Below are positions 33,495 through 47,971 of a stretch of 64,000 bases of DNA, piece after piece. Numbering within the stretch: the first letter of the stretch is position 1; every line of letters begins with the position of its first letter. The translations under genes and the position numbers were made by a program. The notes beneath the pieces were generated by a model. It ran no database searches and was not told the origin of the DNA. It saw only the letters and a program-made list of their open reading frames with translations. This DNA is from Candidatus Undinarchaeales archaeon. GTDB taxonomy: Archaea > SpSt-1190 > JASMDC01. Location: assembly GCA_030753015.1 (NCBI GenBank), contig JASMDC010000006.1, positions 32,001 to 96,000 of the forward strand, written 5' to 3'.

Positions 33495-34304
33495 TCATCC
33501 AGTCCGAACGAACACCTCGCCCTTTCCTTTACCGGAGATATCTCCTTCGTACCTGGCGAAGAGAGCTCCGATTTGCTCCTCTGCGAGCGGTAATCCGTTG
33601 CCTTTCAGCTGCTGCAGGAGCTCCCCGACGTGAGAGGGGCGATCGGTCCCTTGGGGGATGAACGTGGGGAGTAGCTGCGGGGGGGTGAGGGCGATGATGG
33701 TGCCCCCATCCATAGCGGCACCGGCCCGCCCGCCAAGAGCACCGAGGCACACGATGGTGCCACCGGTCATGAGCGTCCCAGCGAAGGTCCCCAAGCTACC
33801 TGCGACGGCGATCGTACCGCCGCACATCAGCTCCCCGACCTCATCGCCTGCGTTTCCTTCGATGATGATACTGCCGCCCGCCATACCGGTCTTCGAGCCC
33901 CGGTAGCCGGCCCCGGCGAGGTTGCCAGTGTTGCCCTTGACATGAATGAGGCCGTCCTTCATCTCGGCGCCGAGCCAGTCCCCGACATCTCCGTGGACGA
34001 CGATTCTACCGCCGTCCATCTCTGTGCCGAGGTGCATCCCGGCGTTCCCGTGGATGGTGATGAGGCCGGTGGTCATCCGTGCTCCGATGTGCTTGACCGC
34101 GCTGACATCGCCCTCGATGACGATCTCGTCCTCCTCGCCTGATGGATCGATCTCGAACAGCTGGCTCAGCGGCTTCCGCTTGTTCCCCCACAGCACCTCG
34201 AGCTTTCCCAGCTCCTTCGCGGGCCGGGCGGCGAAGACATCGGGTGATATGCATTCTGCCTCGACTGGTATCGTGAACGCGACCTTTGGTCTGAGAACGA
34301 CCAT
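33495..34304 (-). CDS. fwdC: Formylmethanofuran dehydrogenase subunit C (set 1)
   Basis: PVEAECISPD, GN....L..LF, Gly-rich G..M.GG.I.V.G repeats, YRG...GM.GG and GD....GKGE. Confidence 0.93.
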   Translation of the reverse strand: MVVLRPKVAFTIPVEAECISPDVFAARPAKELGKLEVLWGNKRKPLSQLFEIDPSGEEDEIVIEGDVSAVKHIGARMTTGLITIHGNAGMHLGTEMDGGRIVVHGDVGDWLGAEMKDGLIHVKGNTGNLAGAGYRGSKTGMAGGSIIIEGNAGDEVGELMCGGTIAVAGSLGTFAGTLMTGGTIVCLGALGGRAGAAMDGGTIIALTPPQLLPTFIPQGTDRPSHVGELLQQLKGNGLPLAEEQIGALFARYEGDISGKGKGEVFVRTG

Positions 34305-35924
34305 CTAGATCCCTCCGCACCGTACGGCTTCCCCACGCGGCAGGTACTCGGCCTGCACGGGGTAGTTTTCCAATGTCATCGTGTAGTACTTCGCGAACAC
34401 CTGACGGTCCTCGTCGGTGAGCTCTCCACCGGCGTCTATCCAGTAGGTCTTGCCCTCGGGTGTGGCGACCACCTCCCCGTTCTTCACGACGATCCTTCCG
34501 TCCTTGATCGTGTAGACCGTGCGTTTGAACGATCCCTCTATGTCGTCCTCCGAGAAACGGTAGATGGCCAGGTCGGCGTCGGCCCCGATACCGAGATGCC
34601 CCTTTCCCTTGAGCCCGAGCGTCTTGGCAGTGGCCGCTCGCGTGATCACAGCGATCTCATAGAGCGAGTACTCCCTATCGAGGCTCGCCAGTATCGCCCG
34701 AGCAGCCGCGGCCTTGTGGATCGTGCCAAGGGTGGTCTCTCGCTCCTTCTTGCTCATCAACCAAGAGATGATCTTCGGGTAGTGGTAGAATGGACCACCG
34801 TTGGGGTGGTCGGTTGTGAGGCTGACCTTCCACGGATCCGTGATCATGAGCGCGACCTCGAGCCCGATGGCCCATTGCACAGCGTTGACCGGGTTCCTCT
34901 CCAGGTACCGGTACGGGACGATGCCGGCCCCGGTCTCCATCTCTACGTCCGCGTTGATCCACTTGTTCCCTGTCAGCCGGTACAGGTGGTGCTGTGCGGG
35001 ACCGTCGGCGGTCATGGTGGTGGTCTCGTCGAACAGGACCTGTCCCATGTCACACGTCACGTGGTCACACCGGTTGATCAACTTCGCGATCTCGGCCATT
35101 CCGGAACCGAAGTCCTTCCATCCCTCGCCGGTGTATGCCTGGAACTGCAGGTGTGTGAGGTGGATCCTGTCCTTGACCGCGTTGATCGTCTCGATGGTGG
35201 TCTCGTAGTTACCGGGCATCCCCAGATTGTTGGCGTGCACGTGGATGGGGTGAGGAAGCCCCATCTCATCGTTCGCCCTGGCGAGGCCCGCAAGCACCTC
35301 CCGCGGTGTGACGTCGTAGTTGTCCACGGGATCGTCGAGGCTTTCCACGTCACGGCCCCACTTCCAGTTCTCCACGCCACCGGGATTCACAAGTTTCACC
35401 GCGTACCCCTTCGATGCACCCAGGAACCAGGCAATGGTGTTCTTGAGGTTCTCCCGATCCCCCTCCTTGATATAATGCATGACGAAGTGGTTATTTCCCA
35501 AGAGGGTGTAGGCGGCCTTGTCCAGGATGGGCGTGTCGTTCAGCTCCTCGTGCGTATGCCGGGCTGATAGCGGAGTGATCGCGGGCTCCATCACCGTCGT
35601 GTACCCCATGGTCGCGTAACGGTACCCCGTCACGTAGGTCGTCGGGATCGAGTACCCGGTCCCCGCGCGCGTGACCGCGGTCTTCGGTACCGGGTCCTTG
35701 CGATGGTCCTCCGGTCTGAACAACCGGCCAAGGTTCACCTTCCCTCCAGAGATGTGGGTGTGGATGTCAAGGCCGCCTGGAAAGACGATGAGACCCGTGG
35801 CATCGATGACTTTTCCCTTCGCCTCCTCGACGATCTTTCCGTCCTTGATGAAGATGTCCATCTTCTCCCCGTCGATCCCGTTCGCGGGATCGTACACGGT
35901 GCCGTTCTCTATGACCAGGCTCAT
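34305..35924 (-). CDS. fwdA: Formylmethanofuran dehydrogenase subunit A (set 1)
   Basis: DIHTHISGGKVNLGR, K.VNPGG, H.H.NNLG.PGNY, HLTHLQF, TTMTADGP and TDHPNGGPF. Confidence 0.96.
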   Translation of the reverse strand: MSLVIENGTVYDPANGIDGEKMDIFIKDGKIVEEAKGKVIDATGLIVFPGGLDIHTHISGGKVNLGRLFRPEDHRKDPVPKTAVTRAGTGYSIPTTYVTGYRYATMGYTTVMEPAITPLSARHTHEELNDTPILDKAAYTLLGNNHFVMHYIKEGDRENLKNTIAWFLGASKGYAVKLVNPGGVENWKWGRDVESLDDPVDNYDVTPREVLAGLARANDEMGLPHPIHVHANNLGMPGNYETTIETINAVKDRIHLTHLQFQAYTGEGWKDFGSGMAEIAKLINRCDHVTCDMGQVLFDETTTMTADGPAQHHLYRLTGNKWINADVEMETGAGIVPYRYLERNPVNAVQWAIGLEVALMITDPWKVSLTTDHPNGGPFYHYPKIISWLMSKKERETTLGTIHKAAAARAILASLDREYSLYEIAVITRAATAKTLGLKGKGHLGIGADADLAIYRFSEDDIEGSFKRTVYTIKDGRIVVKNGEVVATPEGKTYWIDAGGELTDEDRQVFAKYYTMTLENYPVQAEYLPRGEAVRCGGI

Positions 35925-37651
35925 GATCTCACCCTCTCGATAATTTTCTCAAGAACTACCTTATCGGGCAGCTGGTCGGACTCGACCACCTTTCTAAGCC
36001 TGATAGGGATGCCGTCCATCCTGTAGGCTGTACCCTCGCACTCGATGCCGGCGATCGCTGAGGGGATCAGGACATCGGCGATGGACGAGGTGAGGTTGTG
36101 CTTCGGATCGATGATGATGGTGGGGATGTTCGCCAGATGCTCGACCGCTTCCCGTGGGAAGTGGGCGGCTGGGTCCGAGGAGATGATCAAAGCGGCATCG
36201 CACTCCTTTCGTGTCAGCATGTCGACGGCCGAGAACTCTCCCGGATTGTACACAGGGTAGCCTCGTGAGAGGTTGACAGCGAAAGGATAGCCTGTGATCC
36301 ACGTCATGACCGTGTTGATCCCCGTCACATTGTAATGGCCTCGCATAGGGAGGATGGTGAACTTCGTATGGTCGTTCAGGTCCCTGACCAGGCGTAGCGC
36401 CGCGTTGACGTTCATGTGGCGGCCCGCGGACATGGTGAGCCCCAGGCCGAAGAAGATGATCCCGAACTTGCAGCTCTTCATCCGCTCGGCCAGCTCCTTG
36501 ATGGTGCTGGCCGGGACACCGCCAACGTCACCCACGTCGTGCCCCTTGAGCGTGGCACGCAATGCGGATAGCAGCTCGTAGTCCTGGCCCTGCCTGACCT
36601 TGATGAACTGGTCCGCCAGCCGGTATGTATACTTCCATCGGGAGTCCACCTGGGAGGTCTTGGTCTCACGCACGTCCACGTGGACGATGGTGCGGTCCTT
36701 CCTTCCTTCAGTGGTGAACATGCCCTCGGGCGTTCCGGAATATCGTGTGATATGCCTGATGTGGGCCTCGGCGGGATTACATCCCCAGTAGACCACGAGG
36801 TCCGCCCGGTTCCGCACCTCACCGAGAGTGCACTTCGACACCCCGACGTCCTGAGCGGCCATCACGGTCGGTCCGTGGCACACGGAGGACGTGTTGTCGA
36901 TGGTCGCCCCGAGCAGTTCTGCGAGCTCGATGGCGCGCCGCTGGGCGTCGGACTCGGTGGAACTGAGGCCGTAGATCAGAGGGAAGTCCGCGCTTTTCAG
37001 GATCTCGGCGGCCTTGTCCAAGGCCTCATCGAGGGGAACGTCCACGAGCTTCCCCTTCTTCCTCACAGCGGGCTTCGCCCGGTCACGGTCCCAGTTGACG
37101 AATCTGCTCCTCGCGATGTCGCACCCCACCTCCATGTCCCTGACCATTCCTTTGCACATCACGAGCTCCACGTCGTCGCACAGGCAGCCGCAGAAGGGGC
37201 AGACAACGTCGGTCATGATCGACCGCTCGTCCTCGGGGGGGAGTGGAGGGGGAGGCGTCTGGTCGGGCGCTTGGGCGATCTTCTCCTTAAAAGGGAGAAG
37301 GTCGTTGAGCGTGGTCGGTCCGTCCTCGGTCTTCGAAAGCTCGATCCACACACCCTTGAACCGCGGCATACCGGTACCCCCGGTGTCCCCGCCGATGAGG
37401 GCGTTGGCCCAAGGGCCTACTGGTATGAACACGTTGCCCCGGTCGAGCTGGCCTTTACTTGCCCGGACCACCACCGAACCTGATCCCGTGGTAATCTTGA
37501 CCGGAGCGTTCTCCGTGATACCCAGGTCATCCATGTCATCCCCGTTCATGAACGCCACGGCAACCTCCTCGTAGTACTCCGACGAGGTCTTTCCGACCTC
37601 GAGGGCAATACCCTGACCGACCGTCCTGCCCGTGTTCAACATGCATCTCAT
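35921..37651 (-). CDS. fwdB: Formylmethanofuran dehydrogenase subunit D-B fusion (set 1)
   Basis: N-terminal FwdD (LNTGRT..QG, FIP.GPWAN, GTGMP.FKG), Pro linker, then FwdB (CPFCGCLCDD, SVCHGP, WGCNP, PMRGHYNV, YRMDG). Confidence 0.92.
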   Translation of the reverse strand: MRCMLNTGRTVGQGIALEVGKTSSEYYEEVAVAFMNGDDMDDLGITENAPVKITTGSGSVVVRASKGQLDRGNVFIPVGPWANALIGGDTGGTGMPRFKGVWIELSKTEDGPTTLNDLLPFKEKIAQAPDQTPPPPLPPEDERSIMTDVVCPFCGCLCDDVELVMCKGMVRDMEVGCDIARSRFVNWDRDRAKPAVRKKGKLVDVPLDEALDKAAEILKSADFPLIYGLSSTESDAQRRAIELAELLGATIDNTSSVCHGPTVMAAQDVGVSKCTLGEVRNRADLVVYWGCNPAEAHIRHITRYSGTPEGMFTTEGRKDRTIVHVDVRETKTSQVDSRWKYTYRLADQFIKVRQGQDYELLSALRATLKGHDVGDVGGVPASTIKELAERMKSCKFGIIFFGLGLTMSAGRHMNVNAALRLVRDLNDHTKFTILPMRGHYNVTGINTVMTWITGYPFAVNLSRGYPVYNPGEFSAVDMLTRKECDAALIISSDPAAHFPREAVEHLANIPTIIIDPKHNLTSSIADVLIPSAIAGIECEGTAYRMDGIPIRLRKVVESDQLPDKVVLEKIIERVRS

Positions 37652-40092
37652 CAGTCACCACCTCCTAGGGCTTTCTCGAAGGCTTTCTTCGTCTTGTCCA
37701 GTTCTTCCTTCGTCACGTTCTCGACGATGGTATGCATCTGTTCGATCGTGTCAGCGAACATCTGGCCCTCGGCGGCGGAGAACCATCCCAGGTGCAACCG
37801 GTTCTTGTCAAGACCCAGCTTATCCATCCTCTTCCAGAAGCGCTCCACACGCTTCTTGGCATAATGATTGGCGTCGATGTAGTGACAGTCGCCGATGTGG
37901 CAGCCCGAGACGAGCACCGTGGCGACCCCCCGTGCGAAGGCCCGCTCGATGAACTTCTTGGCCATCCTCCCCGAGCACATCATCCTGATTATGCGCACGC
38001 TGGTGGGGTACTGCATCCGGCTCACTCCCGCGAAGTCCGCTCCCGCATAGGAGCACCAGTTGCAGCAGAACGCCAGGATCTTCTTGTCGGCGTCCTCCGC
38101 GGTGGCCGCGTCGATCTGGGAGAAGATCTGCTCGTCGGTGAAGTGGCGCATGACCAAGGCGGCTGAGGGACATTCCGCTCCGCAGGTGCCGCACCCGTGG
38201 CACGCGGCCTCGATGATCGTAATCTTCTTAGTCTTCTTGTCGAAGGCGATGGCGTTGTAGGGGCAGACCTTGGCGCACAGGCCGCAACCTATGCACTTCT
38301 CGTCGATCAGCTTCGGCGTGATTGCCTCCACCTTCACCTTTCCCTTGGCCATGAGGATGCTCGCGCGGGCAGCCGCGGCGCTGGCCTGGGTCACACTGTC
38401 CTTGATGGCCTTGGGTGATTCTGCGGTCCCGGCGAAGAAGATACCGCCGGTGGGCGCGTCCACCGGCCGGAGCTGTGGGTGCGCTTCCATGAAGAATCCG
38501 TCCGCGGTCCGGGACAGGTTGAAGAGGCGCTGGATCTTGTCGGCGTCCTCCCCGGGCTTCAGACCGATGGACAGGATCACCATCCCTGTGTCGATCTGGT
38601 ACAACTCCTTTTGAAGGGTGTTCTCTCCGACTAGACGCAGGTCCCCTCCCTTGCGCTCGAAGATCTCGGCGGGTAGCCCGCGGATGAATATAACGCCCGC
38701 GGCCTTCGCCCGCCTGAAGAGGTCCTCGTATCCCTTGCCGAAGCACCGCATGTCCACGAAGAACACGTAGATCTTGGTGTCAGGCCAGTGCTCCTTGATG
38801 AGCAGGGCGTCCTTGATGGAGTTCATGCAGCATACGCTGCTGCAGTAGGGCAGGCCGCATTTCTCGGATCGCGAGCCCACGCACTGGACGAACGCCACCG
38901 ACTCCGGTATCGCCCGGTCGCTGGGCCGTATCAGATGACCTCCGGAAGGCCCGCCGGCGTTGATCAGGCGCTCGAACTCAAGCGATGTAAGGACGTTCGG
39001 GAACCGACCGTAGCCGTACATCTTCAGGGGAGAGGGATCGTACACATCCGCGCCGGTTGCGATGATGACGGTGCCCACATCGAGTTCGACCTTCTCGGGC
39101 TCCTGCCGGAGGTCGATCACCCCCGCACCCGAGGCCTTGCACACCCTCACGCATTCGTGGCACCGTATGCAGCTGTCCATGTCCACGATAAAGGTCGATG
39201 GCACTGCCTGGGCGAAGGGCGTGTAGATGGCCTTCCGCGGGGCGAAGCCTGTGTCGAACTTGTTGGGGACCTGGACCGGGCAAACCTTGGCGCAGTCCCC
39301 GCAGGCCTTGCACTCCTCCACGACGTACCGGGGCCTCTTCAGGACCGTCGCCGTGAAGTTCCCGATGTACCCTTTAACGTCAACGACCTCGCTGTTGGCC
39401 ATGAGCTCGATGTTCGGGTGTCGGCCCACGTCGGACATCACCGGCGCGAGGATGCAGATGGAGCAGTCCAGTGTGGGGAAGGTCTTGTCGATCTGGGCCA
39501 TCCTGCCCCCGATGCTGGGCTCCTTCTCCACGAGGTAGACCTTGTATCCTGTGTCAGCTAGGTCGAGAGCGGCCTGTAGCCCGGCGACCCCGCCACCGAC
39601 GATCAGGGTCTTCCTTATCACGGGGACCTCGAGCTCCACCTGGGGCCTGAGCAGGGATACCTTGGCCACCGCCATCCTGACCAGATCCTTGGCTTTCTGG
39701 GTGCCTTTCTCCTTCTCATATAGGTGGACCCAGCTGCAGTGGTCCCGAATGTTGGCCATCTCAAACAGGTATTTGTTCAACCCGGCCGCCTCACAGGCCT
39801 TTCGGAAGGTGGGCTCGTGGAGACGGGGGGTGCAGGATGCGACAACGACCCTGTTCAATTTTTCCTCCTTGATGTCGGTCCTGATTTCATCCTGCCCCGG
39901 GTCCGAGCAGCAGTACCTGTTGGTCTTCGCAACGACGACGTTCGGGAGCGTGGACGCGAACTTGGCGACGCCCTCAACGTCAACGGACCCGGCGATGTTC
40001 AGACCGCAGTGGCACACGAACACGCCCACTCGGATCTCGTTGTCATCACTGGAGGGTTCAGATGTCTTCTTGCTCGCTTTTCCTTTTGCCAC
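37651..40092 (-). CDS. hdrA: Heterodisulfide reductase subunit A fused to MvhD
   Basis: GVFVCHCG.NIAG, SCTPRLHEPTF, GGGVAG, DKTFPT.DC, LEFERL, QCVGSR, CS.VCCM..IK, ferredoxin motifs, then MvhD (FCCNWCSYAGAD, MCSGR, GCHIGDCHY, SAAEG). Confidence 0.95.
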   Translation of the reverse strand: MAKGKASKKTSEPSSDDNEIRVGVFVCHCGLNIAGSVDVEGVAKFASTLPNVVVAKTNRYCCSDPGQDEIRTDIKEEKLNRVVVASCTPRLHEPTFRKACEAAGLNKYLFEMANIRDHCSWVHLYEKEKGTQKAKDLVRMAVAKVSLLRPQVELEVPVIRKTLIVGGGVAGLQAALDLADTGYKVYLVEKEPSIGGRMAQIDKTFPTLDCSICILAPVMSDVGRHPNIELMANSEVVDVKGYIGNFTATVLKRPRYVVEECKACGDCAKVCPVQVPNKFDTGFAPRKAIYTPFAQAVPSTFIVDMDSCIRCHECVRVCKASGAGVIDLRQEPEKVELDVGTVIIATGADVYDPSPLKMYGYGRFPNVLTSLEFERLINAGGPSGGHLIRPSDRAIPESVAFVQCVGSRSEKCGLPYCSSVCCMNSIKDALLIKEHWPDTKIYVFFVDMRCFGKGYEDLFRRAKAAGVIFIRGLPAEIFERKGGDLRLVGENTLQKELYQIDTGMVILSIGLKPGEDADKIQRLFNLSRTADGFFMEAHPQLRPVDAPTGGIFFAGTAESPKAIKDSVTQASAAAARASILMAKGKVKVEAITPKLIDEKCIGCGLCAKVCPYNAIAFDKKTKKITIIEAACHGCGTCGAECPSAALVMRHFTDEQIFSQIDAATAEDADKKILAFCCNWCSYAGADFAGVSRMQYPTSVRIIRMMCSGRMAKKFIERAFARGVATVLVSGCHIGDCHYIDANHYAKKRVERFWKRMDKLGLDKNRLHLGWFSAAEGQMFADTIEQMHTIVENVTKEELDKTKKAFEKALGGGD

Positions 40093-40097
40093 GGTCC

Positions 40098-41513
40098 TCA
40101 GCTCCCCTCCGTTCTGTCTGCGAGATACTTGTCGATCGACGTGGCAGCCCGCTTTCCGGCAATGATCGCCTCCATCGCCGAGGCGGGGCCCGACACCGCG
40201 TCCCCCCCGGCGAACACGATGGACCGGCTCGTCTCCATGCTGAACGGATCTGCGATGATTGTGCCCCTTCCAGCGAGCTTGAACGCTCTCAGGATCCCGG
40301 GATCCAATGTCATTCCGATAGCGACTATGATGGAATCAGCCTCCACGACGGACTCCGTACCGGACTCGACCTTCGGGCAGAAGAAACCCAAGGGGTCGAG
40401 CACCGAAAGGCACTTCAGGCTCTCCACACCCGTACATCGTCCGTTCGCCCCGATGATCCGCGTAGGCATCCTGGCGGGATGGAGGACAACACCCTCTTTA
40501 ACGGCCTCCTCGATCTCAGGCCCGAACGCAGGCATCTCCTGCCGTGATTCACCACAGACGATGTGTGCCTCCTTGGCACCGAGCCGCAATACGGTCCGGG
40601 CCGCGTCCATGGCCACATTACCGCCCCCGATGATCACAACCTTGTCCCCGAGATCGAACCGAGTGCCCGTCTTCGTTCCACTCAGGAAGCCGAGTACATC
40701 GAATACACCTTCCAGGTCCTCGCCAGCGATACCGATCCTCCTGCTCATGTGGAGACCGGTTGCGACGAACACCGCTTGGTAGCCCTCCTCTAGGAGGTCG
40801 TCGAGTTCGGGGGCCTTGGTACCGGTCCTGATGTCCACGCCCCGGTTCTCGATCCGCTGGATGTCGGCGTCGAGCGCCTTTGAGGGCAGCCTGAACTCGG
40901 GTATACACCTTCTCGGCATGCCTCCAGCCTCGGGTAGGCATTCGAACACCGTGACGGGATACCCTTTCCCGGCCAGTTCCCAAGCGGCCGTGAGCCCCGC
41001 AGGACCAGAACCGACGATGGCGATCCTCTCGTCATGGGTGATGGGGGGTGGTTCCTCCCCTTTGATCATGCGTTCATATTCGGTGATGAAGCTCTCGAGC
41101 GCTTCGGCGACCTGCGGTTTTTCCACGTGGCCGTGAAGGGGATTGAAGCAGATATAAGTGCATACCGCGGGCAGGGGCATTTCGTTCTTGATGATTTCCT
41201 GGGCCTCCTTGAACGCCTCAAGGTGTCCCCTCTCGGCCGCAGCGTCCTTCATCTGCAGGAGGAGCTCTGGCACCGCGAGTCCTTGGGGGCATCGCCGGTG
41301 ACACCGGTAGCACCAGGCGCACAGCCAGATGGCCGTACCATTCATGACCTTCTCAGGATCGAACGGGAGCCCTTGGAGAAGGCTCCGGGGATTGTAGTGA
41401 TGAGGGAGCAGCTCCATCATTGGGCAGCTCGCGGTGCAGACACCGCACTGGAAACAGAATTTCAGTTGATCAGTCTCCAGTAGCTCCTTTAGGATCTCGT
41501 CGTTCGTTCCCAT
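40098..41513 (-). CDS. HdrC-like ferredoxin fused to a GltD/NfnB-type FAD/NAD(P)-dependent oxidoreductase
   Basis: CFQCGVCTASCP and IWLCAWCYRC..RCP (HdrC-like), then PLPAVC..IC, IAIVGSGPAGL, IPEFRLP, GGGNVAMDAAR, EMPA and FAGGDAV.GP. ATG 41513 after GAGGAG. Confidence 0.85.
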   Translation of the reverse strand: MGTNDEILKELLETDQLKFCFQCGVCTASCPMMELLPHHYNPRSLLQGLPFDPEKVMNGTAIWLCAWCYRCHRRCPQGLAVPELLLQMKDAAAERGHLEAFKEAQEIIKNEMPLPAVCTYICFNPLHGHVEKPQVAEALESFITEYERMIKGEEPPPITHDERIAIVGSGPAGLTAAWELAGKGYPVTVFECLPEAGGMPRRCIPEFRLPSKALDADIQRIENRGVDIRTGTKAPELDDLLEEGYQAVFVATGLHMSRRIGIAGEDLEGVFDVLGFLSGTKTGTRFDLGDKVVIIGGGNVAMDAARTVLRLGAKEAHIVCGESRQEMPAFGPEIEEAVKEGVVLHPARMPTRIIGANGRCTGVESLKCLSVLDPLGFFCPKVESGTESVVEADSIIVAIGMTLDPGILRAFKLAGRGTIIADPFSMETSRSIVFAGGDAVSGPASAMEAIIAGKRAATSIDKYLADRTEGS

Positions 41514-41541
41514 CGTTACTCCTCGATACAGCTGTAGGGGA

Positions 41542-42318
41542 TCAATCCATGAGGAGGATGGTCCCCTTTCCGTTCTCAACGAGGTCCCCGGTGAACGTCT
41601 TAAAATCCCCGCTGAATCCCTCGCCCTCGATTTTGGGGTCCTTGATAGAGCCCCCTTCCTTGAATCCGAGCATGAGCTCTCCTTTCGAGACTACGATGGT
41701 CCCACCGGTCATCTGGGCACCGACGCGTGGGCCTGCTGTGCCCTCGATGACGATGAGCCCCTTCTTCATGTGGATGCCCGTGAACAGGTCAGTATCACCC
41801 TTGATGACGATCGTGCCACCGGCGAGCCTGCTGCCAACCTCGACACCTGCGTTCCCGTGTACTGTGATCCTGCCACCCTTCATGCCCGCTGACTCACCCC
41901 TGTAGGCCGCGCCCAGGTAGTCGGATGCGTTGCCCTTGATGACGAGCTCGCCACCGGACATGTCCATGCCACAGAACGCGTCGCAGTTTCCTTCCACCAC
42001 GATCCTGCCGCCCGACATCCGGTAGCCGCAGTACATACCGCCGTCCCCGTTCACCTGGACCTCGCCCTCAGCGAGGGCCTCGCCGATGCGCTTGAACTTG
42101 CTCAGATCGTCACCCTCGAGCACGATCAGTCGGCCTTTACCCTTCTCGTCCTCGATGGTCACATCGAAGAAGTCACTCAGTGTGCGTTCCTGGTTCCCCT
42201 CGTGGACGGCTACCTTCTTGATCTCAGCAAGGGTCATCCCGAAGAGCTGGTGGTTGACACCATCGGCCTCGACATTGATGTCGTCTACATTGTTCTTGGA
42301 CCGCAGGAGTATCTTCAT
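41542..42318 (-). CDS. fwdC: Formylmethanofuran dehydrogenase subunit C (set 2)
   Basis: EGNQ...L.DFF, Gly-rich repeats, AYRG...GMKGG and GDL.ENGKG. Confidence 0.92.
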   Translation of the reverse strand: MKILLRSKNNVDDINVEADGVNHQLFGMTLAEIKKVAVHEGNQERTLSDFFDVTIEDEKGKGRLIVLEGDDLSKFKRIGEALAEGEVQVNGDGGMYCGYRMSGGRIVVEGNCDAFCGMDMSGGELVIKGNASDYLGAAYRGESAGMKGGRITVHGNAGVEVGSRLAGGTIVIKGDTDLFTGIHMKKGLIVIEGTAGPRVGAQMTGGTIVVSKGELMLGFKEGGSIKDPKIEGEGFSGDFKTFTGDLVENGKGTILLMD

Positions 42319-43991
42319 TTCTTACACCTCTCCATGACCATCTCGCTCTCCCCGAGATAGTCCATCTGCACGGGGTAGTTATCGAGCGAAACGGAGTAGT
42401 ACCCTTCGAACCGCTTTCTCAGGTCCTTCTCGATGACGTCCGTCCGGGGTTTCGTGTCGATCCAGAGCGTCCTTCCCGTAACGGCATTGACGACCTTCCC
42501 GTCCTTGACCGCGAGTTGGCCGCCCTTGATGGTGTATGCACAGTGCCTGAAGGCACGTTCGATCGTTGCGCCGTCCTTCTCCTCGACACCGATGTCGTAC
42601 ACCGCAACGTCCGCATCGGCACCGATCCCCAGGTGCCCCTTGTTAGCGAGACCAAGGGTCTGTGCGGTGCCTCGTGTGATAAGACAGATATCGAAGAGGT
42701 CCAGTTCACGGTCCATGTCGGAGATGGCGGCCTTGCTCTTCACGGCATCGTGGAGCGTGGCTATGGTCTCGGCCCTGGCCTTCTTGGACATGAGCCATGC
42801 GATCATCTCCGCATAGCATGTGAAGGGGCCACCGTTCGGATGGTCCGTGCTCAGGTGTATCTTCGCAAGGTCCTTTAACGCAAGGACCATCTCGAGACCG
42901 ACGGCCCACTGGATCGCGTTCACGCTGACATCCTTCCGATACTCGTAGGGAACGACCCCAGTACCAGCCTCGAGCTCAACGTCGAAGTTTATCCATTTCT
43001 GCTTGCCGAGCTGGTGGAGATGGAACTCGAAGGGCCCGTCGGCCGTCATGGTCGTTGTGGGCTCGAAGCAGACGTTCCCCGTGTCGACCGTGATGTTCGG
43101 GGTCTTGTCGATCTTCTCGGCGAGCTCGACCCCCCTGGACTCGAACGTCCTCCAGGAGTCGCCACCGTACCCGTTGAACTGTAGGTGTGTGATGTGCAGG
43201 ACGGACCGTTCCTTGTTGGTGAGGCCTTTGACGGAGTCGATGGTCTCGAGCGCGGTCGTGTAGTTACCGGGGGTGCCGAGGTTGTTGCAGTGGAGGTGAA
43301 CCGCATGGGGGAGCCCGAGGCTCTCGTTGATGTCCACAAGACCCCGGATGATCTCCCGCGGCGTCACCTCGAAGTGCGTGCAGGGATCGTCAAGGCCGTC
43401 AACGTTCTTGCCCCACGCCCAGCTGGCCGTACCGCCAGGGTTCACGCATTTGATACCATAGCACTTGGTGGCCAAGAGCATCCATGCGACCCACTCCTTG
43501 CATCGATCGATGTCGCCGGCCTTGAGGTACTCGATGACCTGATGATTGTTGCCCAAGAGGAGGAGCCCGGTCTTGTCGAGCATCGGGATATCATGGAACT
43601 CTTCGTGGGTGTGCCTGGCCTTCAGAGGAGGGACCGCAGGCTCGATGACCGTTGTGTAGCCCATCTCGGAGTAGGTGTACCCGGTCAGAAACGTTGTGGG
43701 TACGGAGAAACCGGAGCCGGCCCGTGTGACGTTCGTTCTCGGGACGGTGCGCATCCGGCTGTCCTCTGGTCTGAAGAGCCGGCCGCTGTTCACCTTCGAG
43801 CCGGCGATATGCGCATGGATGTCGACGCCGCCCGGGAACACTACCTTCCCGGCCAGGTCAATGGTCTCGGCCTTTTTGCCGAGATCTTTCTCGGCGACCA
43901 TCTTCCCGTCCTTGATGAAGAGGTCCATCTTCTCGCCACGGATCCCGTTCTTGGGATCGAAGACGATACCGTTCTTGAGTATCAGTCCCAT
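42315..43991 (-). CDS. fwdA: Formylmethanofuran dehydrogenase subunit A (set 2)
   Basis: DIHAHIAGSKVN.GR, K.VNPGG, HLHCNNLG.PGNY, HITHLQF, TMTADGP and STDHPNGGPF. ATG 43991. Confidence 0.96.
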   Translation of the reverse strand: MGLILKNGIVFDPKNGIRGEKMDLFIKDGKMVAEKDLGKKAETIDLAGKVVFPGGVDIHAHIAGSKVNSGRLFRPEDSRMRTVPRTNVTRAGSGFSVPTTFLTGYTYSEMGYTTVIEPAVPPLKARHTHEEFHDIPMLDKTGLLLLGNNHQVIEYLKAGDIDRCKEWVAWMLLATKCYGIKCVNPGGTASWAWGKNVDGLDDPCTHFEVTPREIIRGLVDINESLGLPHAVHLHCNNLGTPGNYTTALETIDSVKGLTNKERSVLHITHLQFNGYGGDSWRTFESRGVELAEKIDKTPNITVDTGNVCFEPTTTMTADGPFEFHLHQLGKQKWINFDVELEAGTGVVPYEYRKDVSVNAIQWAVGLEMVLALKDLAKIHLSTDHPNGGPFTCYAEMIAWLMSKKARAETIATLHDAVKSKAAISDMDRELDLFDICLITRGTAQTLGLANKGHLGIGADADVAVYDIGVEEKDGATIERAFRHCAYTIKGGQLAVKDGKVVNAVTGRTLWIDTKPRTDVIEKDLRKRFEGYYSVSLDNYPVQMDYLGESEMVMERCKK

Positions 43992-43992
43992 T

Positions 43993-45360
43993 CTACTTGC
44001 CCCCTCTTTTCTCCTTGACACGTTCAAGGATCTTCGCGACGATGTCCGTGTCCGACGGCACGTCACTATTGATGACCTTCTTCAGTCGTATGGGGACCCC
44101 GTCCATTCGGTAGGCCGTCCCCTCGGCCTCAACTCCGGTGACCGCGCATGGGAGGTAGACGTCGGCGAACTTGGACGTGATGGTCTCGTGAGGATCGATG
44201 ACGATGACCGGCATATTGCTGAACCGTCGTGCAGCCTCCTTCGGGAGGTGCGCGACCGGATCGGACGCGACGATGAACAGGCAGTCCGCATCGTCCCGCA
44301 TCAGCAGGTCCACCAGCGAGGTCTCTCCGGGATTGTATCTTGCATACCCCCTCGTGAGGTCCACGGCGAACGGGTAACCCGTCTGCCACGTGAACACCTC
44401 GGCGGCGCCCGTGACATTGTAATGGCCACGCATGGGGCGGATGACGACCTTCGTGTCCTTGTTGAGCTCGGCCCCAAGAGAGAGGATAGCGTCGATGTTC
44501 CGATGCCTGCCGCGTGTCATGGTCAGCCCGAGGCCGAAGAAGAACGCGCAGAACTTCGAGCGCTTGAGCCTCTGGGCGAGCTTCATGACCTTCTTCTTGA
44601 TGACGCCCGTGCCAGGTATCTCGTCCGGTAGCTCCTCCCCCTTCATAGCGAGCCTGAGCGCGTGGATCAGCTCGTAATCCGCGTTCGGATCAACCTTGAT
44701 GAACTGGGTGGCGACACTCGTGGACGCGGTCTCCCTGACGTCGACGACGACGACCTCCCGGTCCTGGCGTCCCTTCTCCCTGAAGGCGCCCCTGGGGTAG
44801 ACCGTGTACCTGCTCATGTGGCGCATGTGCGCCTCGGAGGGGTTGCACCCCCAGTAGATGATGAGGTCCGCATGGTTGAGGACCGTTCCCAGTGTGCAGG
44901 AGGAAATGCCCACGTCCTGGACGGCCAGGGTGGAGGGGCCATGGCAGACGGAAGAGGTCTGATCGATGACACCGCCGATCTCCTCCGCAAGGGCAATCCC
45001 TTCACGGGTAGCCTCCACCGAAGTGGATGCCCATCCGAAGAGCACCGGTTTCTTGGCAGCGAGGAGCAGATCGGCCGCCTTGTCGATGCACGCATCCAGC
45101 TTGGCCTCATTGAACGCGTCGTCAGGAGCCTTCTTGTCACCGCTCTTCTTCCTGAGCAGGTTCTTCCTCGTCGCCCCCTTGGTGATGGACTTCTTGAACT
45201 TGAAGTATCCGACCCCGCACGCGTGATAGATCTCGGCCTCGTCGTCCCCCGTCCTCTTGATATGGATGTCGTCGCAGAGGTTGCCGCAAAACGGGCACGT
45301 GACGTCCGTGACATCGGTGAGATCGGGCTTGATGTTCGTGAGTTTCTCTTCCTCGGCCAT
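43993..45360 (-). CDS. fwdB: Formylmethanofuran dehydrogenase subunit B (set 2)
   Basis: CPFCGNLCDD, SVCHGP (Cys, not Sec), WGCNP..AH.RHMSRY, PMRGHYNV and YRMDGV. Confidence 0.95.
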   Translation of the reverse strand: MAEEEKLTNIKPDLTDVTDVTCPFCGNLCDDIHIKRTGDDEAEIYHACGVGYFKFKKSITKGATRKNLLRKKSGDKKAPDDAFNEAKLDACIDKAADLLLAAKKPVLFGWASTSVEATREGIALAEEIGGVIDQTSSVCHGPSTLAVQDVGISSCTLGTVLNHADLIIYWGCNPSEAHMRHMSRYTVYPRGAFREKGRQDREVVVVDVRETASTSVATQFIKVDPNADYELIHALRLAMKGEELPDEIPGTGVIKKKVMKLAQRLKRSKFCAFFFGLGLTMTRGRHRNIDAILSLGAELNKDTKVVIRPMRGHYNVTGAAEVFTWQTGYPFAVDLTRGYARYNPGETSLVDLLMRDDADCLFIVASDPVAHLPKEAARRFSNMPVIVIDPHETITSKFADVYLPCAVTGVEAEGTAYRMDGVPIRLKKVINSDVPSDTDIVAKILERVKEKRGGK

Positions 45361-45361
45361 C

Positions 45362-45772
45362 TCAAGCACCCCCGTACAGGTCGCCAAGTAGTTTGTCCAG
45401 GCTCGTGATCCCTTGTCCCATGGACGTGGACACCTCGGCCGGGATCCCCTTGTACGACGGCATCCCCGTGTGACTTGTGTCCGTCGGGATGAGCGCGTTC
45501 GCCCACGGGCCGAGCGGCACGGCGATGACGCCCGGTGAGTTCATGGTCGGTCGTACCCTGAGCTCCACGGAGCCCACCTTGGTAGTGACCTTCACGATAG
45601 CGTCCTCCTTCACGCGGAGCCGGTTCATGTCATCCTCGTCCATGAGGACAGTCGAGCATTCATCTCGGTACTCCTGGGTGAGCTTCCCCATTTCCAGAGC
45701 CTCGCCCTGTCTGGCGGTTCGTACCGTGACCAGGGTGCATTTGATCGGTGGTGCTAGGATGAGAAATCCCAT
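45362..45772 (-). CDS. fwdD: Formylmethanofuran dehydrogenase subunit D (set 2)
   Basis: RT.RQG..LE.GK...Y, P.GPWAN and TGMPSYKG. Confidence 0.9.
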   Translation of the reverse strand: MGFLILAPPIKCTLVTVRTARQGEALEMGKLTQEYRDECSTVLMDEDDMNRLRVKEDAIVKVTTKVGSVELRVRPTMNSPGVIAVPLGPWANALIPTDTSHTGMPSYKGIPAEVSTSMGQGITSLDKLLGDLYGGA

Positions 45773-45782
45773 ATCGATAACC

Positions 45783-46241
45783 TCAGATGAATTCGAACGC
45801 CTTCTTGGGGCATGCGTCTCCGCATACTCGGCACGTCTTTGTAGCCACCTCGCCTGAGACGCGGCGGCATTTCTCGAGCCTCACGATCTTGATGCGACCG
45901 TTGATGACCTTCAGAATGACCTCGTCGCTGTCGGGTCCCTTACCTCCGGCCGCCTTGGGATCGACCACGTTCACGGGACATGCCACGAGACAGTTGGCGC
46001 AGCCGTCGCAGAGCTCCTCGTGCACGATCAGGCCCGAGGCCTCGGCGCCCTTGATCGTCTCTAGAATCTCCAGGAGTTTCTCCCTGTTCTCCTGGAACTC
46101 CTCGGCCGTTACGGGAAGGCATTCCTCCAGCTTCGCCTCGTTCTTTAGGAGCGCCATTGCGAACGCCATGCACGATTTCTGCGGGCACTTCTCGCAGTTC
46201 GTTTTAGGCAGGAGATTGTAGAAATCCATTGCACGTACCAT
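45783..46241 (-). CDS. Fe-S-domain + ferredoxin protein (FwdG/FmdG-like)
   Basis: LLPKTNC.KC...SCMAFA..L......C Fe-S domain plus CDGCANCLVACP and C......C.VC...CP. Lies directly upstream of fwdD. Confidence 0.8.
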   Translation of the reverse strand: MVRAMDFYNLLPKTNCEKCPQKSCMAFAMALLKNEAKLEECLPVTAEEFQENREKLLEILETIKGAEASGLIVHEELCDGCANCLVACPVNVVDPKAAGGKGPDSDEVILKVINGRIKIVRLEKCRRVSGEVATKTCRVCGDACPKKAFEFI

Positions 46242-47131: not shown

Positions 47132-47971
47132 TCAGTCCGCCCCCTCGAGCAGTCCCGACCGTTCGGTCACCGCACCGCTCTTGGAATGTGATGTCCTCAG
47201 CACGGTATCGTTGCCTTTCTCGATATCACGTGCCTCGTCGACAAGACGTGCGGCCGCGGCCAGCACCTCGTGAGCGGTACATGCCATCAGGACGTACTCC
47301 CGCTCGTCCTTGAGCTTGAAGCAGGCCTCGAAGTCTATCGCCGCCACGGTCTCGGCCATGCGATAGGCGGCCATTGCCTTGGCGAGCGCGTAGGGATTGC
47401 GGTAGTATCCAAGCCCGGCCACCGTGCGTGGTGTGATGACTATCCGGGGCAAATCGTCGGTCCCGAGCGTGCCGCTCTTGATCCGCTCGATTGCTCCATC
47501 TAGGAGCTCGACGATGTGTCGGACCACGCCCGTCCCGGAGAGGACGCGGATGATGTCGGCGTTGAACAGGGCCATTTCGGTGGGATCCAGGAACTCCCGC
47601 CGTGCTCCGATGAGGGGATCGCCCTTGATGAGGACGTACCCCAACCCTTCGGCCTCGAAGTCCTCCTTCGCGCGTGCTGCGGGCCCATCGCTGAACACGA
47701 TGCTCGGGATGCCGGCGTCGGCGAGGAGCTTCCGCACCTCCTTGGGGCCTGCGATGGCCGCGTTCGGGGTCGAGTAGAGAATCAGGTCCGGCTTGTCAGC
47801 GATGAGGGAAGCGGCCACGTCCCGTGCGCTCTCGGGATCCATCTTGGGTCCCGATGTGCGTGCGATGAATGCGAGGTCCTCCCGGTCCGCCCGCTCGTCC
47901 AGTACGAGGTCGATGAGCGGTGAGATGCCGATGTTGCCCGTTTTGATGATGCCGATCGTTACCCTTTCCAT
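47132..47971 (-). CDS. mtd: F420-dependent methylene-tetrahydromethanopterin dehydrogenase
   Basis: K.GNIG, LDERADRED, SG.KM, PN....GP, D..IGARREFLDPTEMALFNAD, NPYA.AKA and H. Confidence 0.95.
   Translation of the reverse strand: MERVTIGIIKTGNIGISPLIDLVLDERADREDLAFIARTSGPKMDPESARDVAASLIADKPDLILYSTPNAAIAGPKEVRKLLADAGIPSIVFSDGPAARAKEDFEAEGLGYVLIKGDPLIGARREFLDPTEMALFNADIIRVLSGTGVVRHIVELLDGAIERIKSGTLGTDDLPRIVITPRTVAGLGYYRNPYALAKAMAAYRMAETVAAIDFEACFKLKDEREYVLMACTAHEVLAAAARLVDEARDIEKGNDTVLRTSHSKSGAVTERSGLLEGAD

Follow-up and report, generated by a model that had tools for sequence, protein, structure and literature searches.

An HdrC-like NfnB/GltD-type flavoprotein paired with HdrA-MvhD between two formylmethanofuran dehydrogenase gene sets in a marine archaeon

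What does an HdrA protein do in an archaeon that makes no methane? In the stretch of 64,000 nucleotides analysed here (the window), from a Candidatus Undinarchaeales genome, an hdrA::mvhD gene and a gene fusing an HdrC-like domain to an NfnB/GltD-type flavoprotein lie between two gene sets for formylmethanofuran dehydrogenase (Fwd). The locus shares its main parts (an HdrA of the kind with a bifurcating FAD, MvhD, an HdrC-type arm and Fwd/Fmd ABCD(G)) with the Mvh/Vhu/Fdh-HdrABC-Fwd(Fmd) super-assemblies of methanogens (5ODC, 7BKB, 9SFI), in which the linkage is reported to send low-potential electrons to CO2 reduction (PMC13518236, PMC9012536). Here, in contrast, the linkage is a genetic one; HdrB, CoM-S-S-CoB chemistry, a hydrogenase or Fdh input module and a FwdF/VhuB polyferredoxin are lacking, and the HdrC-like part is joined to an NfnB/GltD flavoprotein in one polypeptide. 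Judged from sequence, HdrA is kept in this marine archaeon with its usual disulfide-reducing partner swapped for an NAD(P)H-binding protein. The arrangement hints at a route, not described so far, by which carbon chemistry of very low potential could be driven or exploited, and we found no paper describing the flavoprotein/HdrA-MvhD module.

The gene string and its genomic background

The original prediction listed eleven genes, from a fwdG-like gene to mch. Pfam and NCBIfam profiles recovered every one of them in the predicted order on the minus strand, within a longer, tightly packed string that begins with cdhABCDE, mtd and ftr:

47959..55690, minus strand: cdhE, cdhD, a MinD/CooC-like ATPase gene, cdhC, cdhB and cdhA (archaeal CODH/ACS; NCBIfam equivalogs), the head of the string
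47132-47992, minus strand: F420-dependent mtd (NF002162, above cut-off), directly upstream of ftr in the same direction
46267-47130, minus strand: ftr (NF002554/TIGR03119, above cut-offs), directly upstream of the fwdG-like gene
45783..46241, minus strand: fwdG-like iron-sulfur protein, whose N-terminal [4Fe-4S] domain is PF04060, as in CdhE and RnfB, and whose remaining part is of the FwdG 2x[4Fe-4S] type (Pfam, NCBIfam)
45362..45772, minus strand: fwdD of set 1 (PF01568; NF042908)
43993..45387, minus strand: fwdB of set 1 (TIGR03129, 543.5 bits, cut-off 327.8; 5t5i_B, E 1.2e-136)
42315..44066, minus strand: fwdA of set 1 (TIGR03121, 762 bits, cut-off 392.75, aligned from residue 28)
41542..42318, minus strand: fwdC of set 1 (TIGR03122, 236 bits, cut-off 130.65)
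40098..41513, minus strand: HdrC-like::NfnB/GltD-type flavoprotein with FAD and NAD(P) domains (Pfam Fer4_8/Fer4_17 and Pyr_redox_2)
37651..40092, minus strand: hdrA::mvhD fusion of the HdrA2 type (NF040770, 1210.7 bits, cut-off 1100; PF02662, FlpD, residues 672-792)
35921..37651, minus strand: fwdD::fwdB fusion of set 2 (TIGR03129, 567 bits, residues 148-574; NF042908, residues 1-119)
34305..35924, minus strand: fwdA of set 2 (TIGR03121, 796.7 bits)
33495..34304, minus strand: fwdC of set 2 (TIGR03122, 260 bits)
32544-33473, minus strand: mch, methenyl-H4MPT cyclohydrolase (TIGR03120, 347 bits, cut-off 228.8)

Among the cdh genes, cdhB scored below its NCBIfam cut-off (61.5 against 101.2 bits). 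FwdA, FwdB and FwdC of both sets exceeded their NCBIfam equivalog cut-offs; the two FwdD sequences (86 bits in set 1, 106 in set 2) fell below an “exception” cut-off of 175 but matched FwdD chains in solved structures at E 1e-21 to 9e-24. The set 1 fwdA probably starts at an ATG about 25 codons into the longest reading frame. Both FwdB copies carry the N-terminal CPFCGxLCDD motif. SSVCHGP in set 1, with the catalytic Cys-His kept, and TSSVCHGP in set 2 (5t5i_B, E 9.6e-142) align with Cys118-His119 of 5t5i_B, which we take to be the metal ligand numbering of FwdB. The N-terminal part of the set 2 fusion matches 5t5i_D and 9sfi_S. In phmmer searches against the PDB, residues 68-121 of the FwdG-like protein matched 9sfi_U (5.9e-15), 5t5i_G (9.9e-12) and 7bkb_L (1.5e-8), and residues 4-93 matched CFeSP gamma and RnfB. 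The claim of two complete Fwd sets thus stands for subunits A to D, but the FwdG-like gene precedes set 1 only, and no protein in the genome passes the FwdF model (NF042909; best match 43 bits, cut-off 375).

The genome searched is 98.9% complete and shows no match to McrA (TIGR03256). In line with the apparently non-methanogenic character proposed for it, the organism shows no Mcr through which CoM-S-S-CoB would be made. Genome-wide searches likewise returned no [NiFe] hydrogenase (PF00374), including no mvhA-type gene, no [FeFe] hydrogenase, no complex-I-type or Fpo-like module (PF00346) and no Mer. The window holds no hydrogenase or formate dehydrogenase; the best genome match to Fdh-alpha, at 143.7 bits against a cut-off of 666, comes about 9 kb past the window end on this contig. 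HdrB (TIGR03288) has no match in the window's part of contig C84, in agreement with the predicted HdrB-less module, and HdrB-family matches occur on contigs C50, C62 and C29. The two hdrB copies on C50 and C62 each sit directly beside their own hdrC and hdrA::mvhD, and, with no mvhA-type gene found, no conventional HdrB-Mvh complex emerges from elsewhere in the genome. An FrhB-like gene adjoins the C62 set, and all FrhB-like genes lie outside this locus.

The same gene order is found in a second genome of the genus (G001), with proteins 85-93% identical, and near-identical copies of the stretch occur in public marine and seawater sequencing runs from several studies. The arrangement is therefore not an assembly artefact, nor is it unique to this assembly.

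The flavoprotein and its predicted docking on HdrA

The flavoprotein gene had been assigned a TTG start at 41579. Its most likely start is instead the ATG at 41513 (471 aa), which follows a GAGGAG box that would serve as a ribosome-binding site; its stop codon lies 5 bases before the hdrA start. The N-terminal ~110 residues form an HdrC-type domain with two CxxCxxCxxxCP motifs. The HdrC model TIGR03290 matches residues 40-130 at 63.7 bits, below its cut-off of 160, and GltD-type families match from residue ~90. In phmmer searches against the PDB, this domain aligned with residues 29-124 of the 184 of HdrC 5odc_C (E 7e-16), without the C-terminal third of HdrC. Five HdrC sequences ranked first (E 6e-13 to 7e-16), ahead of FrdB/SdhB, and chains of NfnB or GltD did not appear at E <= 1. 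The predicted fusion of an HdrC-like part to an NfnB/GltD-type FAD/NAD(P) protein was thereby borne out.

As a whole, the AF2 model of the flavoprotein (pLDDT 83, pTM 0.87) is NfnB/GltD/DPD-like. Its best full-length Foldseek matches are large subunits of NfnAB, NfnABC and StnABC (NfnABC 9BOV_A, NfnI-L 5JCA_L, NfnB 4YLF_B and 8OH5_C; E 5e-34 to 1e-32, about 1e-33 for 5JCA_L and 4YLF_B; TM ~0.65-0.69), with which it has GSGPAG and both Rossmann domains, for FAD and for NAD(P), in common. It differs from them in lacking two canonical cysteines after “VC” and in carrying a full extra CxxCxxCxxxCP motif. At this locus its neighbours are fwdC and hdrA::mvhD, with no adjacent NfnA, HydB or NuoF-type partner. 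Alignment A1 shows invariant cysteines and the GSGPAG motif. The nucleotide motif, YRRS in 21 of 25 family members, reads CGES in the window, and for this reason the nucleotide used in this genus is probably NADH/NAD+. Such a reading of NAD versus NADP preference depends on one motif and on general rules.

HdrA::MvhD retains the cysteine motifs of every part: the N-terminal domain, DCSIC, the inserted ferredoxin domain, CX12CX3CC, the C-terminal ferredoxin domain and MvhD. The inserted ferredoxin domain is intact (motifs C261-C271 and C308-C318), and GGGVAG and all cysteine motifs of HdrA are invariant across 15 orthologues (alignment A2).

We modelled HdrA::MvhD (813 aa) together with flavoprotein residues 1-150. 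The model reached ipSAE 0.63 (runs 0.63, 0.62 and 0.65), a score that may reflect likeness to HdrA-HdrC complexes already solved (5ODC, 7BKB, 9SFI) rather than binding. The best of three controls gave 0.00. Of 80 solved complexes, 58 attain the ipSAE mark, as do 2 of 110 mismatched pairs. Contact agreement among runs was at least 100%, with partner pLDDT of at least 71. The modelled interface on HdrA comprises residues 358, 404, 408-415, 446-447, 472-476 and 488-498, around Cys404/417/421/422, which were assigned to the HdrBC-exit cluster by sequence position, not by structural superposition. The interface falls within the thioredoxin-reductase-like domain, and in the M. wolfeii structure the Fe-S cluster of this domain is described as the exit to HdrBC (PMC9012536). 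The HdrC-like domain is accordingly predicted to dock on this cluster of HdrA, the usual HdrBC exit, as the original prediction of an HdrC arm at HdrA would have it.

Conservation and neighbours of the pair

In all 15 genome loci compared (G001 and 14 Bathyarchaeia genomes), the flavoprotein gene lies next to hdrA::mvhD. It does so in 27 of 80 metagenome loci, rising to 25 of 31 where HdrA identity exceeds 65%; an adjacent hdrB occurs in none of these 31. The Bathyarchaeia operons, with flavoproteins 40-52% and HdrA 63-73% identical to those described here, likewise always have the two genes side by side and no HdrBC. In the 55-65% identity band, however, true hdrC-hdrB genes stand beside HdrA::MvhD in 6 of 17 loci, and the order OFOR-hdrA-hdrC-hdrB is seen in loci L130, L134, L143 and L182. 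A sister HdrA clade thus has true hdrC-hdrB instead of the flavoprotein, a modular exchange. At identities of 55% or less, the gene most often alongside encodes a polyferredoxin (24 of 32 loci).

The enzymes beside the pair are always those of low-potential ferredoxin chemistry: OFOR (2-oxoacid:ferredoxin oxidoreductase; 7 of 14 loci in Bathyarchaeia genomes and 34 of 80 in metagenomes), AOR (3 of 14 and 5 of 80), CODH/ACS (L102 and L108) or Fwd. The module had been taken to be tied to Fwd. This does not hold beyond the genus: Fwd accompanies the pair in both of its genomes (2/2, here and G001), but in none of the 14 loci from Bathyarchaeia genomes or the 80 from metagenomes. In 10 of 14 Bathyarchaeia loci, the gene after hdrA encodes a small ferredoxin or a polyferredoxin, whereas hdrA has no such neighbour here. 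The present locus differs further from the Bathyarchaeia operons in its two flanking Fwd sets and in CGES in place of YRRS.

Proposed electron route and alternatives

We propose, with roughly even confidence, that the pair works for Fwd as a bifurcating or confurcating HdrA module linked to NAD(H). HdrA::MvhD and the flavoprotein would form a two-subunit flavin/iron-sulfur module in which the FAD of HdrA::MvhD would be the bifurcating flavin, as in characterised Hdr complexes. The two-cluster HdrC-type domain, docked at the HdrC site, would lead to the NfnB/GltD-type FAD and a pyridine-nucleotide site instead of HdrB, so that the high-potential arm of HdrA would end in NAD(P)+/NAD(P)H and not in a heterodisulfide. 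The low-potential arm would be the intact inserted ferredoxin domain, which we infer swaps electrons with the two flanking Fwd enzymes, either through the FwdG-like protein or directly with the [4Fe-4S] cluster of FwdB. CO2/formyl-methanofuran chemistry would in this way be coupled to the NAD pool without hydrogenase, formate dehydrogenase or CoM-S-S-CoB. The CO2/formyl-methanofuran potential is ~ -530 mV and that of NAD(P)+ ~ -320 mV; with NAD(P)+ as the high-potential acceptor, a donor near -420 mV would be needed. A ferredoxin near -420 to -450 mV, or F420H2 as reported with Methanosarcina HdrA2B2C2, is a candidate third partner through the MvhD arm, and the genome searches returned no hydrogenase or formate dehydrogenase equivalog to feed MvhD. 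In NfnAB, the NfnB-family FAD is reported to be the bifurcating flavin itself (PMC5861303), and the electron logic here may therefore differ from our proposal.

Adjacency confined to one genus may mean that the genes are co-regulated as part of a Wood-Ljungdahl operon without their products forming a complex, and the FwdF/VhuB-type polyferredoxin, described as joining the parts in both super-assemblies solved from methanogens (PMC13518236), is absent here, which counts against the Fwd link. The pair might accordingly be a free-standing ferredoxin:NAD(P)+ oxidoreductase or an Nfn-like transhydrogenase that balances the pools of ferredoxin and pyridine nucleotides, with Fwd exchanging electrons with soluble ferredoxin instead of HdrA. 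The change of neighbour enzyme with lineage fits such a general ferredoxin-pool device, as do the ferredoxin genes after hdrA in Bathyarchaeia, the missing FwdF-type connector and the NfnB-like fold. We nevertheless consider this unlikely, if credible. The hdrA stop and fwdD::B start overlap in TGATG, which points to translational coupling and speaks for a module serving Fwd; the module is wedged amid the fwd genes rather than placed at the operon end; neither a ferredoxin gene nor an NfnA-type partner is adjacent; and six HdrA cluster sites plus MvhD would be superfluous in a plain ferredoxin:NAD(P)+ reductase.

Two further readings keep the HdrA chemistry and change the partners. The flavoprotein could be an electron input, passing electrons from NAD(P)H by way of its clusters to HdrA, with a disulfide acceptor reached through the HdrBC of C50 or C62 and Fwd taking the low-potential electron. 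Thermodynamically, electron flow from NAD(P)H to a disulfide poses no difficulty, two hdrC-hdrB sets are at hand, and NfnB/GltD-type modules joined to HdrA, in “type III” HdrA and ANME-1 HdrA9-11, have been read as NAD(P)H entry points (PMC12054007, PMC9012536). Similar fused forms occur in many bacterial loci and in the Bathyarchaeia locus L010 (ORF of 1144 codons), to whose insert the flavoprotein part is ~40% identical. HdrL of sulfate reducers is presumably a further HdrA with such an insert. The fused forms, however, bear a canonical NfnB N-domain (PPCxxxCP...CGRVCFHPCENEC), not an HdrC-type one, between two cysteine motifs of the inserted ferredoxin domain; here the gene is separate, that domain is intact, and the HdrC-like domain is modelled on the very site that HdrC would need. 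Each hdrCB set also has its own hdrA::mvhD, that on C62 with an FrhB-like gene beside it, and hdrC-hdrB and the flavoprotein alternate in sister loci, leaving this electron-input role improbable. Still more doubtful is an F420-linked module like HdrA2B2C2 of Methanosarcina acetivorans, exchanging electrons between F420H2/F420 and NAD(H) and supplying or draining F420H2 for Mtd, with Fwd a mere neighbour. The HdrA::MvhD fusion is of the same NF040770 type, HdrA2, together with HdrB2C2, is reported to act on CoM-S-S-CoB and to use F420H2 (PMC5861303), the present gene string includes an F420-dependent mtd, and the genome has no Frh-type hydrogenase or Fpo-like complex to reduce F420. Yet neither protein has a recognisable F420-binding domain (Pfam, NCBIfam), the FrhB-like genes sit elsewhere, HdrBC is replaced, and no polyferredoxin adjoins hdrA, such as is described with M. 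acetivorans HdrA2 (PMC9012536). Moreover, F420 at -360 mV (PMC5861303) is too close to NAD for much low-potential drive.

Contigs at least 99% identical to the cluster were also recovered from three RNA libraries, touching 24, 23 and 17 of its 30 bins. Given possible DNA carry-over, we take these contigs as a weak sign that the cluster is expressed.

Gene string around the Hdr module

Profile searches of the window, positions 32001-96000 of contig C84, revealed a gene string of ~23 kb on the minus strand, reaching from cdhA (55690) to mch (32544). From its upstream end, it consists of:

Minus strand, upstream end (from 55690): cdhA-B-C, a CooC/MinD-like ATPase gene and cdhD-E
Minus strand, next: F420-dependent mtd, then ftr
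41542-46241, minus strand: Fwd set 1, comprising a FwdG-like gene, fwdD, fwdB, fwdA and fwdC
40098-41513, minus strand: the flavoprotein gene, of the NfnB/GltD type
37651-40092, minus strand: hdrA::mvhD
33495-37651, minus strand: Fwd set 2, comprising a fwdD::fwdB fusion, fwdA and fwdC
Minus strand, downstream end (to 32544): mch

The stop codon of hdrA overlaps the start of the fwdD::fwdB fusion (TGATG), and five bases separate the flavoprotein stop from the hdrA start. With a GAGGAG box ahead of the ATG at 41513, we took the flavoprotein to be 471 aa long, compared with 493 aa for the longest open reading frame. FwdA, FwdB, and FwdC passed their NCBIfam equivalog cut-offs in both sets alike, and both FwdB copies retain the N-terminal CPFCGxLCDD motif as well as the Cys-His pair that corresponds in the alignment to Cys118-His119 of M. 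wolfeii FwdB, whose structure is solved. In its C-terminal half, the FwdG-like protein is truly homologous to FwdG (9sfi_U, E 5.9e-15), and its N-terminus carries an additional Fe-S domain, of a type shared with CdhE and RnfB. The original prediction had placed the Hdr module between two complete Fwd sets; the gene order was confirmed, but no FwdF reached its cut-off and a FwdG-type gene is found in set 1 only.

Nor is the arrangement unique to this assembly, since the same succession (cdhD-E-mtd-ftr-fwdG'-D-B-A-C-flavoprotein-hdrA-fwdD::B-A-C-mch) recurs in full, with 85-93% identity, in another genome of the same genus. Among the runs listed, near-identical copies of the stretch, whole or in part, occur in 20 marine or seawater metagenome runs from 12 studies, 9 of these 20 being possible sources of the assembly. 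Contigs from three RNA (metatranscriptome) libraries touch parts of the cluster at ≥99% identity and weakly suggest its transcription; being assembled contigs only, they attest to presence rather than operon structure, strand or level, and the parts they leave uncovered are uninformative.

The flavoprotein and its predicted seat on HdrA

HdrA::MvhD (813 aa) scores 1210.7 bits against the NCBIfam HdrA2 model, above the cut-off of 1100, and carries a FlpD/MvhD domain at residues 672-792. All expected cysteine groups are present and invariant in 15 orthologues: those of the N-terminal domain, DCSIC, the inserted ferredoxin domain (C261-C271 and C308-C318), C404-x12-C417-x3-C421-C422, the C-terminal ferredoxin domain, and MvhD.

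The flavoprotein displays two canonical CxxCxxCxxxCP motifs, an FAD motif (GSGPAG), and a nucleotide motif (GGGNVAMD). Its AlphaFold2 model (pLDDT 83, pTM 0.87) was matched by Foldseek most closely to NfnB-type folds (9bov_A, 5jca_L, 4ylf_B, 8oh5_C), followed by GltD and dihydropyrimidine dehydrogenase. This full-length match would suit a plain NfnB with its usual N-terminal domain, a reading countered by the first ~110 residues, which phmmer matched to five HdrC chains (5odc_C, E 7.1e-16; 9sfi_E; 8rvv_C; 8rvu_c; 7bkb_C) and then to FrdB and SdhB, and by the TIGR03290 HdrC model, which covers residues 40-130. The phmmer search of this domain returned no Nfn or GltD chain at E ≤ 1. We consider an HdrC-like domain on an NfnB/GltD body a fair description of the protein; it may have originated by fusion or by divergence of an ancestral helical ferredoxin domain.

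The usual Rossmann-fold rule relates the motif at the nucleotide-binding position to a preference for NADH or NADPH. This position is occupied by YRRS in 21 of 25 family members, by CGES in the window protein, and by CLES in three others. By that rule, CGES instead of YRRS points to NADH being favoured and NADPH disfavoured in this genus.

The complex of full-length HdrA::MvhD with flavoprotein residues 1-150, each given as an alignment, was predicted with an ipSAE of 0.63 (0.63, 0.62, and 0.65 across runs), compared with 0.00 for the best of three controls. Among solved complexes, 58 of 80 reach a mark of that height; among mismatched pairs, 2 of 110 do. All contacts (100%) are shared between the runs, with a partner pLDDT of at least 71. 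On the HdrA side, the modelled interface (residues 358, 404, 408-412, 415, 446-447, 472-476, and 488-498) encircles the C404/C417/C421/C422 site of the thioredoxin-reductase-like domain and is clear of MvhD and of both ferredoxin domains, inserted and C-terminal. The flavoprotein contributes residues 15-44 and 74-78, the faces of both Cys motifs. The model places the HdrC-like domain at HdrC's own seat on HdrA, the Cys group being matched by sequence position to the Fe-S cluster through which, in the M. wolfeii structure (PMC9012536), electrons leave for HdrBC; the score may reflect likeness to solved HdrA-HdrC complexes.

Relatives and neighbourhoods of the module

The flavoprotein family is large: 7997 candidates were scored, all at E ≤ 0.001, with a best non-self identity of 52%, and the named matches are Bathyarchaeota or Thermoproteota entries described as 'FAD-dependent oxidoreductase'. 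Orthologues were found in 2 of the 17 genomes of the phylum sample, counting the source genome, the other being its same-genus relative; two further genomes, G022 and G033, gave partial matches from residue 64 or 101 onward. Among the Bathyarchaeia, 14 of 201 sampled genomes encode an orthologue (E ≤ 1e-100). HdrA::MvhD and the HdrC-like::NfnB-like flavoprotein, with their cofactor motifs, form a conserved two-gene module: in all 15 loci (14 Bathyarchaeia and the same-genus genome), the flavoprotein adjoins an HdrA::MvhD of 63-88% identity.

The module lies beside low-potential ferredoxin-dependent enzymes, here the two Fwd sets. Fwd accompanies the flavoprotein in one of the 15 loci, that of the same-genus genome, and the pair in the 14 Bathyarchaeia loci is flanked by 2-oxoacid:ferredoxin oxidoreductase (OFOR; alpha, beta, gamma) in seven and by aldehyde:ferredoxin oxidoreductase (AOR) in three, with a ferredoxin or polyferredoxin 3' of hdrA in ten. 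At the comparison locus L102, the flavoprotein/HdrA pair is located between cdhA and cdhC, and at L108, HdrA::MvhD occupies this position in a CODH/ACS operon without the flavoprotein. These two loci give the second instance in which the module interrupts the operon of a Wood-Ljungdahl enzyme.

A locus survey seeded with the flavoprotein used the generic GltD pattern [IV]A[IV][IV]GSGPAG, and its 80 listed loci are mostly ordinary bacterial GltD/NfnB-like genes, uninformative on orthologues; they served solely to bring fused HdrA-NfnB forms to light. The HdrA-seeded survey of metagenomes gave the following picture.

Neighbours of HdrA in metagenome loci (best 80 of at least 578 confirmed matches)
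Stand-alone flavoprotein adjacent: 27/80; 25/31 where HdrA is > 65% identical, several of the > 65% loci without it ending at a contig edge
OFOR: 34/80
AOR: 5/80
CODH/ACS: 1/80
hdrB adjacent: 10/80; 6/17 at 55-65% HdrA identity and 0/31 above 65%
Polyferredoxin adjacent: 28/80; 24/32 at HdrA identity ≤ 55%
Fwd, ftr, mch or mtd nearby: 0/80

Four of these best 80 loci (L130, L134, L143, and L182) have the order OFOR-hdrA-hdrC-hdrB. Judged by gene order, they show true HdrCB and the HdrC-like::NfnB-like protein as alternative partners for one kind of HdrA, and this alternation is the strongest comparative support for the idea of HdrB replaced by a pyridine-nucleotide site. In the operons at L137, L139, L141, L145, and L147, OFOR stands together with an HdrA bearing an inserted NfnB-like module and with more pieces resembling HdrA and MvhD, after which comes the HdrA::MvhD type, so that a single string contains both fused and HdrA2-type proteins.

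An NfnB-like module inside HdrA is found at many bacterial and some Bathyarchaeia loci, and the accessible parts of PMC9012536 and PMC12054007 describe such modules in ANME-1 HdrA9-11 and 'type III HdrA'. At the Bathyarchaeia locus L010, the insert separates the two Cys motifs in HdrA's inserted ferredoxin domain, and its N-terminal domain is canonical NfnB (PPCxxxCP...CGRVCFHPCENEC) rather than HdrC-type. Given this position and this domain, the split form studied here is a different solution: the fused protein carries the module in its inserted ferredoxin domain, whereas here the ferredoxin exit is kept and the nucleotide module is placed on the HdrC arm. A Rosetta-stone idea, in which the separate flavoprotein docks on the inserted ferredoxin domain as in the fused forms, was rejected as evidence, because gaps run through the BLAST match at residues 42-92, which is carried by the Cys motifs, and because of the NfnB character of the L010 insert. 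The component families and HdrA-NfnB fusions are already known. In the accessible parts of the literature, we found neither a stand-alone HdrC-like::NfnB-like partner for HdrA::MvhD nor its Fwd link described, although the Hdr cluster tables of PMC9012536 and PMC12054007 may list such clusters. Nor did we find there any non-methanogen with an Hdr-type module inserted between Fwd sets, a case that supplementary tables may contain.

Genome background and a possible electron route to Fwd

The source genome (3.85 Mb, 117 contigs, 98.9% complete, 5% contamination) agrees with the original prediction of an apparently non-methanogenic archaeon: searches of the whole genome gave no match to McrA, the [NiFe] hydrogenase large subunit, [FeFe] hydrogenase, Mer or PF00346, the last implying no complex-I, Fpo, Ech or Mbh-type module. 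FwdF and formate dehydrogenase alpha had no match above their cut-offs in the genome, and two MtrA-like matches fall below theirs. With Mer unmatched, the H4MPT-type Wood-Ljungdahl gene set is otherwise full, and a MetF-like gene lies at C11:37374-38258. A third fwd set is divided between contigs C40, which has A and C, and C45, which has D and B; a second mtd-ftr pair lies on C39. Energy conservation and methylene-H4MPT reduction are also discussed as a question for ANME-1 in the accessible part of PMC9012536.

A normal HdrABC completed by a remote hdrB would have spoken against the prediction. The genome encodes an hdrC-hdrB-hdrA::mvhD set at C50:23493-27134 and, at C62:81375-86775, hdrC, hdrB, a pair of HdrA-like genes and mvhD, followed by an FrhB/FdhB-like gene (PF04432, 33.9 bits), so that every hdrB has its own hdrA. 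The latter cluster resembles an HdrABC linked to F420, here in an organism that lacks Mcr.

Our preferred reading, an NAD(H)-linked HdrA bifurcating or confurcating module serving Fwd, stands about evenly poised between right and wrong. The flavoprotein would dock at the HdrBC exit of HdrA, whose FAD would bifurcate or confurcate electrons; the high-potential arm would use NAD+/NADH instead of heterodisulfide, and the inserted ferredoxin domain would connect to Fwd, via the FwdG-like protein or directly via the FwdB cluster. With potentials of roughly -320 mV for NAD and -530 mV for CO2/formyl-methanofuran, the partner on the MvhD arm should be near -420 mV. A candidate is a ferredoxin, at -420 mV in the accessible part of PMC5861303, which would suit either direction. 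In the forward direction, 2 reduced Fd + NAD+ + CO2 + methanofuran would yield NADH + formyl-methanofuran, and in reverse, formyl oxidation would raise NADH electrons to the ferredoxin level. HdrA2 kinship suggests F420H2 (-360 mV in the same source) as an alternative, and the third partner, on the MvhD arm, is the main gap of the scheme.

Other explanations have to be weighed against this one. A free ferredoxin:NAD(P) oxidoreductase, only co-regulated with Fwd, seems to us rather unlikely. NAD(P)H may be the input and a remote HdrBC the acceptor, which we consider improbable; hdrB genes do exist elsewhere in the genome, each beside an hdrA of its own. An F420-linked enzyme, which the HdrA2 kinship would suit, is more improbable still. 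The preferred NAD(H)-linked reading can also be extended to one hydrogenase-free, heterodisulfide-free complex of HdrA::MvhD, the flavoprotein, and two Fwd, which would couple NAD+/NADH and a mid-potential ferredoxin (or F420) to CO2/formyl-methanofuran by bifurcation or confurcation; this we propose tentatively, as more likely wrong than right.

The electron source or sink at about -500 mV in non-methanogenic, hydrogenase-free Wood-Ljungdahl archaea is an open question that concerns abundant sediment and seawater lineages. To our knowledge, direct supply to Fwd is well understood only for the methanogen Hdr super-assembly, which needs CoM-S-S-CoB. If the one-complex reading is true, direct Hdr-to-Fwd coupling, thought typical of methanogens, would also occur in a non-methanogenic marine archaeon with another high-potential partner. 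An NAD(H) site in HdrB's stead would connect the pyridine-nucleotide pool with CO2 fixation or with formyl oxidation, and flavin-based bifurcation would gain a new partner set, in which HdrA FAD is joined by NAD(P) on the HdrC arm. In uncultured archaea, Fwd, pyruvate/2-oxoacid synthase, AOR, and CODH would, on the one-complex reading, share this core as a portable 'low-potential booster'. Because the core adjoins OFOR, AOR, and CODH in the Bathyarchaeia, a module that is widespread but still without a name could be explained by a single biochemical study. The Fwd linkage and the prospect of a direct biochemical test raise its interest, the module being small (two to seven proteins) and hence directly testable.

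Several further observations concern the genome and the window. Molybdopterin oxidoreductases (847- and 911-codon ORFs, distantly FdhA-like; TIGR01591 143.7 bits at best vs a cut-off of 666) each lie with a GltD/NfnB-like gene of the canonical kind, whose product shares 31% identity with the window flavoprotein from residue 87 onward, at C84:105163-108973 (~9 kb past the window end) and C73:67881-71307; these pairs are possible NAD(P)-linked molybdoenzymes. The genome size in this genus is 3.6-3.85 Mb (5% contamination), compared with 0.6-1.2 Mb in the 15 other genomes of the phylum sample, which may reflect an unusual large-genome branch, uncertain placement or some bin mixing. The cluster itself is on a single contig, recurs in the same-genus genome, and is present in many public runs. 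The window also encodes A-type ATP synthase B and A subunits (58069-61258, minus strand), so the organism has an ATP synthase, though no known ion-pumping redox complex was found in its genome, and a gene of the PEP synthase or pyruvate phosphate dikinase type (5373-7889, plus strand). Two tandem radical-SAM genes with the HMPTM N-terminal zinc-ribbon domain (PF23545) lie at 17525-20208 on the plus strand; by family name, they may serve methanopterin biosynthesis, which would fit the nearby H4MPT pathway genes.
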